DNA of 64,000 nt from Hydrolagus colliei. Taxonomy: Eukaryota. The stretch lies in assembly GCA_035084275.1 (NCBI GenBank), contig CM068743.1, positions 42,160,001 to 42,224,000 of the forward strand, written 5' to 3'. The notes under the pieces were generated by a model. The model did not search any database and was not told the DNA's origin. It saw only the letters and a list, made by a program, of their open reading frames with translations. This document shows, in pieces, positions 8,678 through 58,544 of this stretch. Each line of letters begins with the position of its first letter. Position 1 is the first letter of the stretch. The translations under genes were made by a program, and so were the position numbers.

Positions 8678-8970
8678 GTGGAATCCTGTAGTTTAGTGGA
8701 ATCCTGTAGCTTAGTGGTTAGAGCACTTGCCTTACAAGTGAGAGGACCTGCATTCGAATCCCAGGTGGGGTGAAACATTGGGTAAGTTACCTTACTCCAT
8801 ATGCTTCTGTTTACCTAGCAGTAAGTAAGAACCTGGTTGTTGGTTGAGCGGCGGATTGTTTTTCAAGTTAATAATCCCTTCAAAATATACTTTTATAGTA
8901 CATTATGTAAAACATTTGAGACATCTATAAGATGTGATAGGCGTTATAGCAAATGCAAGAATTATTATGA
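8678..8970 (+). mobile_element. tRNA-derived SINE (older subfamily, internally deleted)
   Basis: tRNA head with a 19-bp tandem duplication; CTGTTTACCTAGCAGTAAGT segment; AAATGCAAGAATTATT tail. Confidence 0.85.
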
Positions 8971-11681: not shown

Positions 11682-11973
11682 TAATAATAATAATCATCGC
11701 ATTTGATGTAGCACTTTTTCATGTCATCTAGACGTTTCAAAGAGAATATATTGTAAAGTGAATTGACTATACATATGGGGGTGAAACGTGGCAGCCAATT
11801 CTGCACAGCAGTGTCCCACAAACATTGGATTGAAATTACCAATTTATTATTATTTTATTGGGAGGGATTTTTATTAGGCAAGAAAACTTGCACAAGATTT
11901 CACCCTGTCTGGAATTGAACACAGGTCCCTCATTTGTAAGGCGAGTGCTCTAACCACTGAGCTACAGGACTCC
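11682..11973 (-). mobile_element. tRNA-derived SINE
   Basis: Same head, body and tail as the other copies. Confidence 0.85.
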
Positions 11974-49276: not shown

Positions 49277-49877
49277 GCTTACCCAGCTTGCATAAACATA
49301 TTCACTGATCACAGGTACACACACACACTGATCACAGATACAATCATTTACTGATCACAGGTACACACACACACAATGCCCAGGTCATTGAGTCACTACA
49401 ACTGTTTTCTTCGAATGCATAAAGTGGTAAGTGAAATTGGTGACTCGTGACAATCCAATGTCAATCTTATGTGGAAGGTCATTTGGGAGAATTCACTCAA
49501 GAGGAAGCCTGATCTGTTATTCACCAAGTGTGCTCAACCCAGCTCAACATGGAATATGTGAAAGCATTACCACCATCTTCCTGCCCACAGCTTGTCTAAA
49601 ACCTACTTCTGTATATCTATAGCCACTTTGCCAAAGCATTGTATTGTATTCTAATAACCATCTGGATCATTGAAACATTCTTCCAATTTTGCCATTGTTG
49701 TTTCCAAAAAAAAGCCATGAGGTTATGGTCCTATGTTACTGATTCACTAATCAGCAGGAATAATCTATTCTGTATTCCTCTGATAATCTTTCTGAATTGT
49801 AGTTGCATACCCCCACTAAACACATTATAAAATGGATGTGAGTATTATGTTATATGACTTTCAAACAAGTGGAGATG

Positions 49878-50446
49878 TGTCGTGGAATAACTCACAAAGA
49901 GATCAGGTTATTCATGTAAAACACAAACAGTCATTTAATATACTAACGGCCGAAAGGAGAAATACCCTCACAGGTCAGATACCCGAGTTGGTACTTCTAA
50001 AGAACTAACAGAAATACAACGGTTTATATCTTATTCGTTTGCACACCGCATGACAGTAGTATAAGCTCCGTTAACCAATTACAGCAATCCACCTAATCAA
50101 TAAAAGTGAATGTGGGAAGAGAGTTGAACTCTATTTACACTAGCCATGGGGTGCAAAAAGGGCAGCATCTATTAAAACAAAACTAGACAACCACAAGTTG
50201 CTAATTGATAGATTACCATTTTCAAAGAAAGAAGTAAATCGTCTTCAATGATCAGGAAGCAATTGATCACCTAAAGAATAACAAGCAGGGAATGTCTAAT
50301 TTACTCAAACACAAGCCTTTCTCCCTTCTTGGTCTGGACTATGTCATACAACTGACGTTTGCTGATATCCCTATTGACCTCTGGAATTTCTAAGGGAGAC
50401 TAAGAAACAGCTAACATGGTTGCCGATGTTTAACATGGTTTCCACA
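49878..50446 (-). repeat. 3' LTR (569 bp)
   Basis: Matches 57280-57848 with no difference seen by eye; candidate ATTAAA polyA signal at 49934-49939 (minus). Confidence 0.96.
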
Positions 50447-50486: not shown

Positions 50487-51864
50487 CTAATCAAAATTAA
50501 TAGCAGCTAGCCGAGCAGCTTCTTGTTCAATAGAATCCTTATCTAGATCGAATTCTCCAGGGTAGGATAACGATAGTAATGGAAGGAGGGCAGGGACATT
50601 TAAGTTTGGAGGTCTAAACATTTGAGCACACAAACAGTGGAAGCACATGACACAAGCATATATCAAAACAAAAACACAAATGATTATTATGAAACCTTGG
50701 ACAAAAGTACCGTCAAGACCTCCAAACCAAGTGTACTAAGAAGTAGACCCAGGAGAGTGTAAACTTTTAACAGCAGATCGAATATGGGTGCTTAAATTAG
50801 TAATGTTCTCTGAGGAATCAGGGATATAGGTGCAACATTCAGTACCTATTAAGGCACACGTGCCGCCTTGTTTGGCCAATAAAAAAATCAAGGGCCATTC
50901 TATTTTGGAGGGTGGTCGTTCGAATGGCCACTAATTCAGCACTAAGCTGTTCTAGGGCAGTCGCAGTGTCATTTGCAAGTTGTTCCAATAGGGAAGATAC
51001 TTTATTTACTTCTATTTGAGATCGAATTGTTCCATAGGAAGGGACAAAGGCAGAAGCAATCATTTCCCATGTAGAAATAGACCTACGGAACTTCTGGGAA
51101 GGCAAGGCTGGTAAACTTTGCAAATGACGAACTTGTGGGATCACATAAGCCAAATAACAGGACCCAATCCAATTAAGGGGCAACCAGGGATAGGCTTTTT
51201 GCCCACAAACAAAATAAGTGCCATTATAAGACACTGCTCGTAGGTCACCTTTCCAAATCAATAAACTAGGGCCCGACCATTGAAGTCCACTTGTTATGTT
51301 AGGCAACCCAGTTAGATTAAATATACCGAAGATAGGCCAGATATTAGTGTTATCCTTACTCACTGTGATCGTACCGATGGAAATATGGTACGAACAAAGA
51401 CTGTTACCCATAAAAAGACCATGTAGTGAAGTTCATACAAAGCAGACATGACCTAGAGTTACTTCGGTACCTTTATTTCGAGGGATAAACAAAAATGGAG
51501 GTAAATGACTTCTATTAACTAGGGGTTGATACCATCCTGAAAAGTGGGTCAAATTGTACCCTGCAGACTTCCACATGTTTGGATCAAAGCTCTCGGCCTG
51601 TGTGCGTAGTAGCGTTACATTTTTAAATTGATAGAACATCCATTCAATCGTTTCTGACAAATAAAAAGGGACTGATTGTACAGGAATGCCTCCTTTTGAA
51701 TGGAGAGGGATATGGGAGCATACCCAACAAGCTGATTGTCCTGTGCGGTTTGCAAAAACGTATGACATGTACAAATATGTATTAGCATGAATAGAAATAC
51801 GGGGTTTTACACTTAATAACTGAGTAGAACATACTAAAAGGCAATAATATAGATTCAACATCAT
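50487..51864 (-). pseudogene. env: env (gamma-type SU-TM), disrupted
   Basis: Signal peptide; CWVC in SU; KFRR cleavage site; LQNRMALD immunosuppressive domain; CALIGTECC (CX6CC); hydrophobic TM anchor. Lesions: TGA 51433-51435, +1 T at 50881-50887, TAG 50736-50738. Confidence 0.92.
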
Positions 51865-54800
51865 TCAACCAGTAAAAGGTGCTGGCTTGACGTGAGTGGC
51901 GTGAATCCAAGTATTTTGTCCTTTACACTTGACAGCAGTATGGGTTGTTAACAGGACAAGGTATGGTCCTTCCCACCGGGGCTCCAGGCAATTCTTCCTT
52001 CGAAAGACCTTTATGTAGACGTGATCACCAGGAGTGTAATCATGACAGGCGTCTTCAGTCGGTTTCTGCTGGGCAGCCACTACCTTGCGTGTGGGAAGTT
52101 CTAAAAGACTTTGTTAGAGCTACACAATAAGATAACAAAGCTTCATCCATAGCATGGAGAACCATTTGCCTAGTTGTTAATGGGGCGCTAATCGGTAGTC
52201 GTAAAGGACGACCCATAACTATCTCATGAGGAGATAGACCAGATAATCTGTTAGGATTTGAACGCATGAGCATCAATGCAACCGGTAAGGCTTCTGGCCA
52301 TTTCATACCCGTTTCAGCGCATAATTTAGCAATCTTATTTTTCAAAATCCCATTATGTCGCTCCACTGCACCTGTAGACTGTGGATGATAGGGACAAGAA
52401 AAATGCTGTGTACACTGCAAGGCTCTAAGCAATTCTTTAATGATAGTGCCAGTGAAGTGAGGTCCATTGTCACTGGATAAACGCTCTGGCACTCCAAACC
52501 TGGGGACAAAATCTTTAAGTAGAATCTTAGCCACTGTTATTGCATCATTTTTTCTGGTAGGGTAGGCTTCTACCCATCGAGAGAAAACATCCAAAATGAC
52601 TAAAACATAAGTAAAACCCATACATTTAGGCATGTGAATAAAATCCATTTGTAAATGGATAAAAGGTCCCCAAGGCTGCGGCTGTGATGCTGGCTGCACA
52701 GCCGGAGTCTTACCCGCATTATACTTATTACATATAACACACTGCGTACTAATTTTCACAGCCAATTTAGCAAATCCAGGTGCATACCAAGATTGCTGAA
52801 TAATGCTTAACATTCCCCCTTTGCCCGCGTGTGTATACACATGACACATATGGGCAAGCCAGGGCAACAGGCTCTTTGGGGCAACCACGCGGCCGTCGTG
52901 GGATACCCAGAGACCTGACTCGAGTTGAGAGCATCCTGCAGCCTTCCAGAGAGCAACCTCTTCAGAGGGTGACTCAGCCTGGGAATGTAGGAGAGATGAC
53001 AAGGGAGAAAGATTAGACGCAGGTTTAGCAACACATAATTTTACCACAATCCCTGCATTACCACGCGCAGCTGCTTTTGCGGCACGGTCAGCACGGATAT
53101 TACCAAGAGAGATATCATCTGTACCGGTGGTATGGGCGGCACATTTAATAATGGAAATAGATGAAGGTAACTGAAGAGCTTTTAAAAGATTATAAATCAA
53201 TTGTCCATGTTTAACCGTAGTCCCAGAAGAGGTAAGGAAACCACGGGATTGCCAAATAATAGCAAAATCGTGAGCTATTCCAAAGGCATAACGAGAATCA
53301 GTATAAATGTTCACAGACTGGCCATGGGCTACAATACATGCTCGGGTTAAAGCAAATAATTCAGCAGCCTGGGCAGAACATGTTGAAGGCAGTTGGCCTG
53401 ATTCCACAGTTGCGGTGGGAGAACAAATCGAATAACCAGATTGACTTTGGCCGGTGTCGGAACGCAAGCAGGATCCACAGTAAAGAGCTCTAAATCAACG
53501 TTTGTTGAGCATAGTCCCGTAACTCTGGACGAGGCAGTGAGACCGTCTGGGTTATAAGTTCACAATCGTGTGGTTCACCGTCGTCTTCAGTGGGTAAAAG
53601 ATCAGCAGGATTGAGATTGGTACAGCGAAGAATAGTAAGAGAAGGATCAGAAAGAAGAATAGCTTCGTACTTAGTAGTTCGAGCAGCCGTAAGATGTTGA
53701 GTCGCAGAACGAGTTAATAAACAGACAACAGAGTGAGGCACATGAAGAGACAAAGGGTGACCGAGAACCAAGGGTTGACAGGAAACTACAGCATGATAAA
53801 CAGCCGCAACAGCCTTTAAACACCCAGGGAGCGCCTGTGCTACTAGATCAAGACGAACGCTAAAATAAGCGATTGGTCTGTGGCGATCACCATGTAACTG
53901 AGTCAAAACGGAACACGCTTTTCAGATAGCGAACGAGTGCGCTCACTTAAAACATGTCCAAGATACTGAACACTAGGCTGACATAATTGGACTTTAGATT
54001 TCGAAACTTTATGTCCTTTACGGGCCAGTGTTTGGAGGAGAAGGATGGTGTCTGATTCAGAAGAAGCCTGTGAGGGTGATGCAAGAAGCAAATCATCAAC
54101 ATACTGAATCAGCACCGAACCTCCAGGAAATACAATATCCTGTAAATCCTGATGAAGAATGCGAGAGAAAATTGTAGGGCTTTCAGTGTATCCCTGTGGC
54201 AACCTTGTCCACGTATATTGTTTACCCTGATATGTAAAAGCAAACAAATATTGGGAGTCAGGATGTAGGGGAACAGAAAAGAAAGCACCGCAAAGATCGA
54301 TGACAGAATAATATTTAGTACAGGGAGGAATACAACTTAATATAGTCGCAGGGTTAGGAACAACAGGAAAAGCTGGTACCACTGCTGCATTTACCACACG
54401 TAAATCTTGCACGAACCGCCATGTATTTCTTCCCGGTTTCTTGATGGGTAAAATAGGAGTATTACATGGACTCACGGTTGGGATGATTACACCTTGTTGC
54501 AAAAGGTCCTGAATAACTGATTGGATTCCCAATGAAGCTTGCGGGCTTAACGGATATTGCTGTCGTCGAGGAAGTTGCTTAGTGACATCCACCTGGACCA
54601 CGAATGGGGCTGCGGAGAGAACTTTTCCTACCTCATTCGGTCTGGTGGCCCACAAACATGTAGGTACTTGGTCGAATATAATCCTGGTTACATCGTCGGA
54701 GGCCAATTGGTGTCGTTCAAAAATGCCAGTCATAGTTGTAAAAGCTAACGTAAGACAAAATTCATTATTTGGAAAAACAAAAACCTGACCTAAACAGGTA

Positions 54801-55663
54801 GGGATAGTTTGCAAAGGCTTTTGCTGTTGAAGTCGGAAAACCATAGACCCTAAGTCTTTTGGCTCATACCCATCATTTACATAGAGAGTACAGTGAGAAA
54901 CATTAGGGGTGGTTGCTTTGTATATAGCAACTGCTGCTGGCGAAAGATCCACATATAAAGCAATCCCTTCAAGTCCATAGTACATCGTATTTGTGGACAT
55001 AAAAAATGACTGTCCCAATGCACCAGTGTGCTGTTGTGCATAATCAGTGTCGTTTCCTTCTTTATCAAAATAAGCCGTACAATGGAGATGAGAATGCCAT
55101 TTATAAGGTTGAAGAGAAGGCAATAGTAAATAAGGCATTAATGCTGGTAAGTGTATTAAAGTTTGTACTATATGTAAAAGCTCCGAAGATAAAGTTGGAC
55201 TAACAATCTTCCACCACCAAACAATTGGACCTGACAAATCTTGAGCTTCTTGAAGTAAAGCACAAACATAGCCATATTGTTGTTCAGGAACTTGCAAACT
55301 CACACCATCATCAGTACAAACTAAAGTGCATCCAAGTTTACACAGTAAATCTCGTCCGAGTAAATTACAAGGAACACTTTTTGCGAGTAAAAATTTATGT
55401 TCCCCAGTCCACCCATGGATGCTGTACTCCATATTTTCAGAAAAAGGGATAGAAATAGGCTGTCCAGTAAGACCCACAACATTAATTGTGTTACCTGTTG
55501 CTTTAATACCAGGTAAAGTGGAAGGTTTTAGGGTAGAATGTGTCGCTCCTGTATCAATAAGGAAAGGAAGGGAAAGACCCTTAACCATCACAGAACAAAA
55601 AGGCTCATTAGAAAAATTGTCATCATCTCTCTGTGGTAATATACCGTCCGGGTTGTGGCACAG
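51865..55663 (-). pseudogene. pol: pro-pol (protease, extra domain, RT, RNase H, integrase), disrupted
   Basis: LIDTGA...NLLGRDLL protease; LPQG and YVDD RT; AQAAEL/YTDSRYAF RNase H; HHCC, LQMDF, SDNGPHF, AVERHN integrase; WEGPY C-terminus. Lesions: RT thumb deletion ~53910, two frameshifts ~53478-53505, frameshift ~52084. Confidence 0.95.
54707..55228 (-). other. Putative 2H phosphoesterase domain inserted between protease and RT
   Basis: LHCTAY (His codon 55084-55082) and SHCTLY (His codon 54895-54893) are two H-x-T-hydrophobic motifs 63 aa apart in an open frame; boundaries approximate. Confidence 0.7.
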
Positions 55664-56684
55664 TCATTGACAATTATTCTTAGGAGGCGAATTGGGGAAT
55701 GGGGCATTCATAGTAAAAGATGCCCAATTTCCCTGAGGGGTCGCATCAGATGGAGGTGGGGGTTGCATTTGATATCCTCCACTGTGCCCCTGCTGTCCTC
55801 CAGCAGTATTTTTGGGGCATTCTTTAGCCCAATGTCCAGGTTGTTGGCATATATAACATAAACCAGGTTTAGAATTATTATTTCCCCAATTGTTTCCCCA
55901 ATTGTTTCCCCAGCCACGACCACGACCTTGTCCACGTCCCCGGCCACGTCCCCTACCCCGACCCTGATAATTGTTGTAAGGGTTAGGGTTTGGGTGGCCA
56001 AAAGGAGCATACTGGATCAGGACGCGTTCGGGCTTATCTTTGAATTTTTGCTGAATTTGACGTTGACAATGCTGCAGAACGTTAACAACTTCATTCATAG
56101 ACTTAGTCTCATATCCTATACAAGCAGTACAAAACATTTTCCTAATACCAGGTTGCAACCCGTTCACAATAGCACTAATCAAAGCAGGTAATCCAGCTTC
56201 TAGATTAATTCCCGAATACTTTTCAAACACATTCCGAAGACGCTCAACATAATCACCAACATCCTCATCTGATTTTTGTACAGTACAATGGATTTTACCC
56301 CAATCGACATTTTTAGGAAATTGCCCACGCAGCGCTTCGCTAATTCTAACCCACAGTTGTTTCATGTGCTCTTCATTTGGATTATCCTGATCTAATGTCC
56401 AATCACAATTATTTTTAATCTTTTTCCATCTATGATTACCTAAACAAGCATCCAACATTGCTAATTTTTTTTCTAATCGCTTCACGTTTCCTTAGGACGT
56501 CTCCTAAGGCTGTGATACGATCTAAATTCCACGAACCATCTCTTGGGAAACTATTTCCCTCACACCGTGACCATTTTTCCCATTTCTTCACATACTGTAT
56601 ACTACCAGAACCATAATGTACATACATATATGCACATGGAATCCTTTTATTGGGAACCAAATCTTTACAATTACTTTTACCCAT
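55664..56684 (-). pseudogene. gag: gag, frameshifted and probably internally deleted
   Basis: MG N-terminus (myristoylation-type) with FPRDGS; MHR-like QKSDEDVGDYVERL; RG repeats; single CYICQQPGHWAKEC zinc knuckle; frame break ~56465. Confidence 0.9.
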
Positions 56685-56942
56685 GTTTTACTGTAGCCAA
56701 TCAAGACTTCCCAGGAAGAACAATTTTGATAATGCTAAATTTTCTTAAGTCCAATCAACTGCTCAATTGTCAAACAAATATATCTTCTGGTTAATTTACC
56801 AAAAGTATGTCCAATTAACACACCAAAACAATACAAGACAAACAAACACACAATAAACAAGAGTTTCGCGAACAAACCTTCAGTATACTATTAAACCCAT
56901 AGATTGCAATCATCAACAATATATCTATATATATATCATAAA

Positions 56943-57087
56943 GACTGGTTACTTTATGATCGTAGGGCCTGGTTACCCTACGGAATCAGGGACTGGTTAC
57001 CCCAATTCTGAATCAGGGACTGGTTACCCCAATTCTGAGTGCGGACTGGTTACCTCACTCGGAGTGCGGACTGGTTACCTCACTCTC
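56943..57087 (-). repeat. Tandem repeat array in proviral 5' leader (six CTGGTTAC-cored units of ~23-27 nt)
   Basis: Directly visible GGACTGGTTACC repeats. Confidence 0.9.
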
Positions 57088-57253: not shown

Positions 57254-57271
57254 ATCTCGGTGGAACCTCCA
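57254..57271 (-). promoter_or_regulatory. Primer-binding site, tRNA-Gln (TGGAGGTTCCACCGAGAT)
   Basis: 18-nt complement of the vertebrate tRNA-Gln 3' end (ATCTCGGTGGAACCTCCA), 8 nt inside the 5' LTR boundary. Confidence 0.9.
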
Positions 57272-57279
57272 AAAAGTAC

Positions 57280-57848
57280 TGTCGTGGAATAACTCACAAA
57301 GAGATCAGGTTATTCATGTAAAACACAAACAGTCATTTAATATACTAACGGCCGAAAGGAGAAATACCCTCACAGGTCAGATACCCGAGTTGGTACTTCT
57401 AAAGAACTAACAGAAATACAACGGTTTATATCTTATTCGTTTGCACACCGCATGACAGTAGTATAAGCTCCGTTAACCAATTACAGCAATCCACCTAATC
57501 AATAAAAGTGAATGTGGGAAGAGAGTTGAACTCTATTTACACTAGCCATGGGGTGCAAAAAGGGCAGCATCTATTAAAACAAAACTAGACAACCACAAGT
57601 TGCTAATTGATAGATTACCATTTTCAAAGAAAGAAGTAAATCGTCTTCAATGATCAGGAAGCAATTGATCACCTAAAGAATAACAAGCAGGGAATGTCTA
57701 ATTTACTCAAACACAAGCCTTTCTCCCTTCTTGGTCTGGACTATGTCATACAACTGACGTTTGCTGATATCCCTATTGACCTCTGGAATTTCTAAGGGAG
57801 ACTAAGAAACAGCTAACATGGTTGCCGATGTTTAACATGGTTTCCACA
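57280..57848 (-). repeat. 5' LTR (569 bp)
   Basis: Copy of 49878-50446; TATAAA at 57425-57430 (minus). Confidence 0.96.
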
Positions 57849-58544
57849 GATGTTTGCATGAATTTAAGTGTAATGAGTCAAATGGATTCCTCCACTTCAA
57901 AGAAGACTCTCCCAGCAGCATGTGTTTGGAAATTTAGATACTTTGTGACTTTATTGCATAACTTCATGATCATTGCTGCAAATGATTTATTAGATGTGAA
58001 TTAATACTCATATTGTACCACTTTACGTTGCACTTAAAATGACTGTGGTTTAGGCTGTTGCGAATGGATCTACCATAGCTGATAAAAGCTTTAGTTATAA
58101 CATTGACGTTAACCATAGGAGACAATGGCACACTTTACAGCTCAGTCTGCTTATTGACACAGACATTCATTGATTTTGTTTCACTTCTGATGACCTGGTG
58201 GATTTGCAGACAAAGTGATATCTATATTCTACTCTTTAAATCGCAGATCTCAGTAAACAAACTAGCTCAGTGTGATTTGGGATTCTTTTTGCATGCTCCA
58301 AAGAAAGTAATCTGACAAGAAGGTGTTTGGAACAAATAAGTGTGCATAAATAATAATAATAATCCTTGCGTTTGATATAGCATTTCATCATGCTGTTGAA
58401 AAGTCTCAAAGAGCATTAAAGGATATAATATGAAGGATATATTATAATTTCAGCATCTTAGGACATCCTCCCCATGTGAAAGGCACCATACAAATGTAAT
58501 TTTGCAGTTGTTGTAATATAAAGTGGATTGACTGATTATTTTAG

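Follow-up and report, generated by a model that had tools for sequence, protein, structure and literature searches.

A divergent CNPase-like 2H phosphoesterase domain predicted in the Pol polyprotein of an epsilon-like endogenous retrovirus of Hydrolagus colliei

Between the protease (PR) and reverse transcriptase (RT) of its Pol, a provirus in the cartilaginous fish Hydrolagus colliei carries an additional domain, absent from Pol of the murine leukaemia virus type, that fold prediction points to as a captured catalytic domain of CNPase, a 2H phosphoesterase. The provirus lies in a stretch of 64,000 nucleotides (GCA_035084275.1, contig CM068743.1, positions 42,160,001 to 42,224,000), hereafter the window, whose own numbering is used throughout. 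It is a defective epsilon-like (class I) endogenous retrovirus (ERV) on the minus strand, a genus-level label that rests on its anatomy and relatives rather than on a tree including named reference viruses. The architecture as such is already known: in ray-finned fish, some epsilon-like ERVs carry CNPase or macro domains (PMC4977317, citing Basta 2009), and 2H domains occur in fish retroviruses as well as walleye dermal sarcoma virus (WDSV; PMC9503650, citing Mazumder 2002). An earlier note on this DNA had remarked, correctly according to both, that such domains had been noticed in fish retroviruses. The available text of PMC8672886 has no mention of CNPase or cyclic, and that of PMC4422223 no such domain. 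What is new is a divergent member: like the fish elements it is epsilon-like with a CNPase/2H domain, and its teleost Pol relatives have the domain at the same PR-RT position, but the family described here is only about 25% identical to them and resides in the genome of a cartilaginous fish.

The domain is part of a 586-amino-acid stop-to-stop open reading frame (ORF; 53903-55663, coding 53906-55663, minus strand) that starts after the gag TGA and in frame with it. Pfam places RVP at residues 19-114 and RVT_1 at residues 407-571 of this ORF and has no match in the roughly 200 residues that separate them. The protease ends near LLGRD (55349-55363) and RT begins near DQVPT (54659-54673). Between these points, on the same strand, lie HCTAY (55070-55084), which contains H194, and HCTLY (54881-54895), whose H257 is 63 residues past H194 and which is followed by GYEPKDLG. 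The in-frame extra segment with two H-C-T motifs that had been reported at 54707-55228 is therefore real, and its fold-defined limits are 54704-55237. Two further public DNA runs gave contigs that cross the domain with 0 gaps, which rules out an assembly artefact as its source.

We assigned the domain to a subfamily by its predicted structure. An AlphaFold2 model built from a 42-row alignment reached a mean pLDDT (predicted local distance difference test) of 76 and mostly exceeded 90 over model residues 51-220, with values below 50 in the linkers on either side of the domain (residues 29-42 and 223-233); a model from a 13-row alignment reached 33.6 and was not used. The 42-row model adopts the two-lobed 2H fold, and CNPase or its fish relative RICH accounted for all 40 matches listed by Foldseek (best E 3.4e-9). 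VIA-align, which scored Foldseek's top 999 chains, superimposed model residues 43-220 on residues 163-378 of mouse CNPase over 178 residues (Z 19.8, root-mean-square deviation 2.4 Å). All of the best 50 rows listed were 2H proteins: ranks 1-40 were CNPase or goldfish RICH, followed by the cyclic phosphodiesterase (CPDase) of the fungal tRNA ligase Trl1 and then LigT (Z 8.2-8.6), and the crystal structures of AKAP7, NS2 and VP3 were not among these 50. Trl1 CPDase (PDB 6u05), which opens 2',3'-cyclic phosphate RNA ends, shares the 2H fold (Z 13.1 over 153 residues) but is 8% identical, and the provirus has no kinase or ligase to partner the domain. Together with the motif register, the close superposition on CNPase suggests that the two histidines may be juxtaposed in one cleft.

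The likeness to vertebrate CNPase and fish RICH (PF05881; PDB 7qzk, 1woj, 2i3e) extends from the whole-domain fold to the active site. CNPase uses the catalytic set His230/Thr232/His309/Thr311 and sandwiches the base between Phe235 and Val321; the loop and helix alpha7 that follow its second motif are absent from other 2H enzymes and may set the 2'-product (PMC4643303). The viral domain has both H-x-T motifs, keeps the four catalytic residues and the Phe235 equivalent, and aligns without gaps from His309 to Gly324, with a predicted helix where CNPase has alpha7. Unlike full-length CNPase, it has neither the N-terminal P-loop domain nor the membrane tail and is flanked by PR and RT inside a polyprotein.

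Sequence profiles gave the same answer independently of the model. With a cut-off of E<=10, profile A4 matched 21 PDB sequences, of which 20 were CNPase or RICH (E 0.005-0.22), while profile A1 returned 3 chance matches and profile A3 was swamped by RT. Three of 14 library relatives matched the Pfam CNPase family below its cut-off (best E 2.7e-4), and single-sequence searches gave no match in Pfam, in PDB (phmmer) or in two word-index searches among longer proteins. Motif conservation and the predicted fold thus support membership of the 2H superfamily, as the earlier note had proposed. The subfamily appears to be that of CNPase and not the LigT/AKAP7/Acb1 type, and we describe the domain as CNPase-derived rather than as a full family member because the PF05881 cut-off of 25 bits is not reached, the query having no match and the best relative scoring 21 bits.

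Viral LigT-like antagonists (coronavirus NS2/NS4b, rotavirus VP3, phage Acb1, avipox PDE) resemble the domain in being virus-borne 2H proteins with paired histidines, but they belong to another subfamily, derive from another cellular donor and score weakly against the model. In Foldseek, coronavirus ORF2/ORF4b appeared at E 0.018-0.054, Acb1 at E 0.04 and rotavirus VP3 at E 0.07, with LigT/AKAP7-type relatives overall at E 0.018-0.3. The best match among predicted viral structures was Q2VF30, an unnamed 1072-aa entry (E 2e-14), followed by the Env polyproteins of walleye epidermal hyperplasia virus 1 (WEHV1; E 1.6e-10) and WDSV (E 3.5e-9). The BFVD entries Q9WHI8 and A4GTG3 are among the matches of this search.

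Searching the same genome yielded at least 45 matches. Twenty-nine rows correspond to 18 copies of the provirus's own family (family A), in 7 of which the domain is unbroken; the remaining 16, at 27-37% identity, form two more ERV families, B (11 rows) and C (5 rows), with the domain at the same position between PR and RT. Members of B and C match other 2H Pfam families at E 0.01-0.2 only. Their domain (L030-L045) is shorter, 146-155 aa versus 202 in the same cut, and is missing the greater part of the helical stretch that precedes motif 1. When 7991 candidates were scored with a profile of all three families, 19 proteins matched, mostly Pol-type proteins of teleosts and one Callorhinchus record that by eye lies near family B. 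A phmmer search over 1.84 billion representatives gave 15 matches, one of them an artefact, and the protein-atlas neighbours of the homologue P0007 had uninformative scores of at most 0.77. P0030, a repeat-array artefact without a profile match, and P0017, which lacks most of the domain, were removed from the alignments.

Conservation was read from alignment A2, whose 41 rows (9 from this genome and 32 database proteins) are not independent. Outside family A, identity to the domain is 20-31%. The first histidine is nonetheless present in 40 of 41 rows, the Thr/Ser of its motif in 38/41 and an aromatic Phe/Tyr at +5 in 40/41; the second histidine and its Thr/Ser are found in 40/40 rows that reach them, and the glycine at +15 in 39/39. 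The covered copies of family A all keep His194 (15/15), His257 (17/17) and Gly272 (17/17). Conservation of both motifs in related Pol proteins of bony and cartilaginous fish, which the earlier note had put forward as a check, is thus borne out.

We consider it probable, though far from certain, that the domain is a CNPase-type 2',3'-cyclic-phosphate hydrolase carried in the particle and acting on RNase-generated RNA ends or on 2',3'-cyclic mononucleotides. Gag-Pol containing the domain would be made by read-through of the gag stop and packaged, and the viral protease would free the domain at the flexible linkers on both sides. By analogy with His309 and His230 of CNPase, His257 would activate water and His194 would protonate the 3'-O, so that hydrolysis of 2',3'-cyclic phosphates at RNA ends, and likewise of 2',3'-cyclic mononucleotides, would yield 2'-phosphates. 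Its likeliest job would be to clear cyclic-phosphate products left by host metal-independent RNases on viral or primer RNA. Of the functions suggested earlier, the resolution of 2',3'-cyclic phosphate ends is favoured because the subfamily is that of CNPase and not LigT/AKAP7/Acb1-type, and the destruction of 2',5'-oligoadenylate (2-5A) is disfavoured on grounds given below. Our literature search, which covered few subscription papers, turned up no retroviral 2H domain whose function had been tested.

Several observations weigh against this hydrolase function or the descent it assumes. Identity to CNPase is only about 20%, and the two histidines are 60-63 residues apart versus 79 in mouse CNPase. 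Specificity may also have moved, as the position of CNPase Val321 is basic in 39/39 rows (Lys 28, Arg 9, His 2) and CNPase Arg307, which like Phe235, Val321 and Tyr168 is a substrate-binding residue, is not kept, the alignment register at Tyr168 being ambiguous; the basic residue may replace the charge of Arg307 or admit a larger, more anionic substrate. The host genome has its own CNPase gene, so that the benefit of a viral copy is not obvious. Family A itself shows no sign of recent purifying selection in the domain: variants found in at least two copies number 3 synonymous and 17 non-synonymous in the domain versus 12 and 17 in RT (Fisher p 0.064). Finally, some supported teleost splits conflict between the domain and RT trees, which have 6 of 9 supported RT splits in common.

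The shift at the Val321 position bears on a second reading, in which a CNPase scaffold was adapted to break down a messenger of the immune system, more probably cyclic GMP-AMP (cGAMP) than 2-5A; we regard this as unlikely, if worth keeping in mind. Retroviral cDNA is sensed by cGAS, and a basic residue in all 39 rows could bind a second phosphate. Read-through Pol product would be low in amount for a messenger sink, and CNPase is the nearest fold by a wide margin, whereas Foldseek gave weak scores to Acb1 and to the enzymes of coronaviruses and rotavirus. Viral LigT-like enzymes do cleave cGAMP or 2-5A (PMC11410667), although retroviruses are not mentioned in the available text of that source, nor are retroviruses, endogenous or fish in that of PMC10835031. 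The host genome has STING and an OAS cluster, the latter a tandem array of five OAS-like genes at G000:C28:1805710-1843942; a single-exon-like OAS piece lies on C1. No clear RNase L was found in our search of this genome, whose two RNase-L-family matches look like IRE1 by what we take to be the IRE1 signature. The 2-5A version is especially unlikely because teleost ERVs keep the domain with an intact site although OAS/RNase L are reported lost in fish (10.1101/693333).

Two further readings involve the match to walleye-virus Env. In one, the domain could mainly bind, as a decoy or competitor of host CNP or as an RNA-binding spacer in Pol. Host CNPase restricts primate lentivirus assembly through Gag (PMC5434554), and the cytoplasmic loop of the walleye-virus Env (PMC3185748) would sit at the budding site. 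It is the catalytic set and not a surface that is conserved at about 25% identity, however, and neither the N-terminal domain nor the membrane tail of CNPase is present, which makes a mainly binding role very doubtful. In the other, a sharper form of the hydrolase reading, a virion-borne CNPase might disarm RNA sensing: as particles are degraded in the endolysosome, it would open the rings of 2',3'-cGMP and cyclic-phosphate-ended fragments made by RNase T2 and PLD3/4, the enzyme being kept at two sites of the particle, in Pol in the case of this provirus and in the cytoplasmic loop of Env in walleye viruses. These products are ligands of TLR7/TLR8 (PMC11470960, whose available text mentions neither CNP nor retroviruses), and 2',3'-cGMP is a CNPase-type substrate. 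Pol products are low-copy inside the particle and would have to survive lysosomal proteases, and we hold this route to be rather improbable.

Patterns of selection differ among the families. Purifying selection on the domain is evident in sister family C, where the ratio of non-synonymous to synonymous substitution rates (dN/dS) is 0.14-0.26 for the insert (10 pairs) and 0.08-0.25 for RT (6 in-frame pairs), the pairs not being independent; in family B the insert ranges from 0.20 to 0.79 (21 pairs, likewise not independent). RT or PR windows running off-frame were excluded from these counts. In family A, all variants together are 35 synonymous and 67 non-synonymous in the domain versus 52 and 86 in RT. 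Residues of this family other than the catalytic ones (L002-L024, codons 143-320) may be under relaxed or positive selection. The weak constraint in family A, and the fact that gammaretroviruses manage without the domain, could suggest that the domain is vestigial, a passenger that is tolerated with a protease site on either side, but the catalytic residues are unchanged across cartilaginous- and bony-fish lineages and in all covered copies of family A, and dN/dS in family C is about 0.2. Conservation largely refutes the passenger explanation, to which we give hardly any credence.

The uninterrupted frame, which the earlier note had set against the many lesions elsewhere in the provirus, carries no weight as a sign of selection. 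With 5-8 lesions spread over 6.2 kb of coding sequence, a 534-nt stretch would escape all of them with a probability of 0.49-0.64, and 11 of the 18 family A copies are broken inside the domain; we reject the argument on both counts.

The domain appears to have been inherited together with RT. Across 20 sequences, domain and RT distances correlate (rho 0.79, 0/2000 permutations), the domain evolving 2.2 times faster; P0029 and P0032, in which the motif pattern was missed, P0031, whose RT window was mis-anchored, and proteins without RT were left out of the tree test. These data fit one old capture inherited with RT, in trees that are unrooted as to origin, and the capture was likely an ancient event in an ancestor of these fish retroviruses. 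In the host, the CNP gene consists of several exons, and one exon is only 11-23% identical to the viral domains, which argues against a recent capture from this host.

The surrounding provirus (Table 1) has an epsilon-like anatomy, LTR-PBS-gag-stop-pro-pol-env-PPT-LTR (LTR, long terminal repeat; PBS, primer binding site; PPT, polypurine tract), with a gamma-type transmembrane subunit (TM) and a tether followed by RNase H. The PBS, which we take to be a tRNA-Gln match, lies farther from the LTR than the usual 0-3 nt. By eye, short tandem repeats with units of about 24 and 20 nt occupy the 5' leader downstream of it (56977-57080). Here, as in 17/17 other copies, gag stops at a TGA (55661-55666) that shares the frame of pro-pol and is followed by CTG in 15, a leaky context suggesting UGA read-through; viruses of the murine leukaemia virus type read through UAG. 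Since gag, pol and env are all broken, a whole Pol cannot come from this provirus. Some breaks are common to other copies (the gag break in 1 of 10 covered, that near 53910 in 5 copies, that near 53490 in 1 of 6 covered), so the element was likely defective already at integration, which fits its identical LTRs. LTR identity despite broken genes, with several breaks common to other copies, indicates that the defective genome apparently spread in trans, and recently. Elsewhere in the window, ARAGORN calls of tRNA-Val at 8701-8772 and 11901-11970 belong to a scattered family of tRNA-derived repeats resembling short interspersed elements.

Table 1. Coordinates of the Pol domain and of the provirus that carries it, in window numbering
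Feature	Position	Strand	Remarks
CNPase-like 2H phosphoesterase domain in Pol (predicted), ~180 aa, aa 143-320 of ORF	54704..55237	-	AlphaFold2 model residues 43-220
First H-x-T motif and aromatic at +5 (H194, T196, F199)	55067..55084	-	matches CNPase His230, Thr232, Phe235
Second H-x-T motif and loop to invariant Gly at +15 (H257, T259, P268, K269, G272)	54848..54895	-	aligned without gaps to CNPase His309...Gly324
Predicted helix after motif 2, equivalent of CNPase helix alpha7	54827..54862	-	model helix residues 168-179
Retroviral aspartyl protease, DTGA at 55544-55555	55322..55609	-	Pfam RVP E 3.9e-11
N-terminal portion of RT with YVDD at 54092-54103; frame broken near 53910	53906..54673	-	Pfam RVT_1 E 1.4e-27
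5' LTR, 569 nt	57280..57848	-	0 mismatches vs 3' LTR
3' LTR, 569 nt, polypurine tract before it	49878..50446	-	0 mismatches vs 5' LTR
Target-site duplication, 4 nt	49874-49877 and 57849-57852		
Primer binding site, begins 8 nt past 5' LTR	57254..57271	-	
gag with one CCHC knuckle; frame broken near 56440-56490; terminal TGA in the pro-pol frame	55664..56687	-	
Remaining pol in two further frames (tether, RNase H, integrase), broken near 53490	52058..53921	-	Pfam RT_RNaseH, RNase_H, rve
env remnants, several pieces (gamma-type TM, TLV_coat)	50490..51864	-	Pfam TLV_coat E 2.6e-7

Simple retroviruses carry few accessory enzymes, dUTPase being the textbook case. A CNPase domain with an intact site across retroviruses of cartilaginous and bony fish implies an undescribed step in the retroviral cycle that involves RNA ends or cyclic nucleotides, and it bears on the question of what natural substrate CNPase itself has. 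Should the RNA-sensing route prove true, the domain would be the first enzyme of a retrovirus to target an immune nucleotide, and viral 2H proteins would gain a new class of substrate. As the domain is small, confidently folded and intact in 7 of 18 copies, the question of its substrate is answerable with one enzyme panel.

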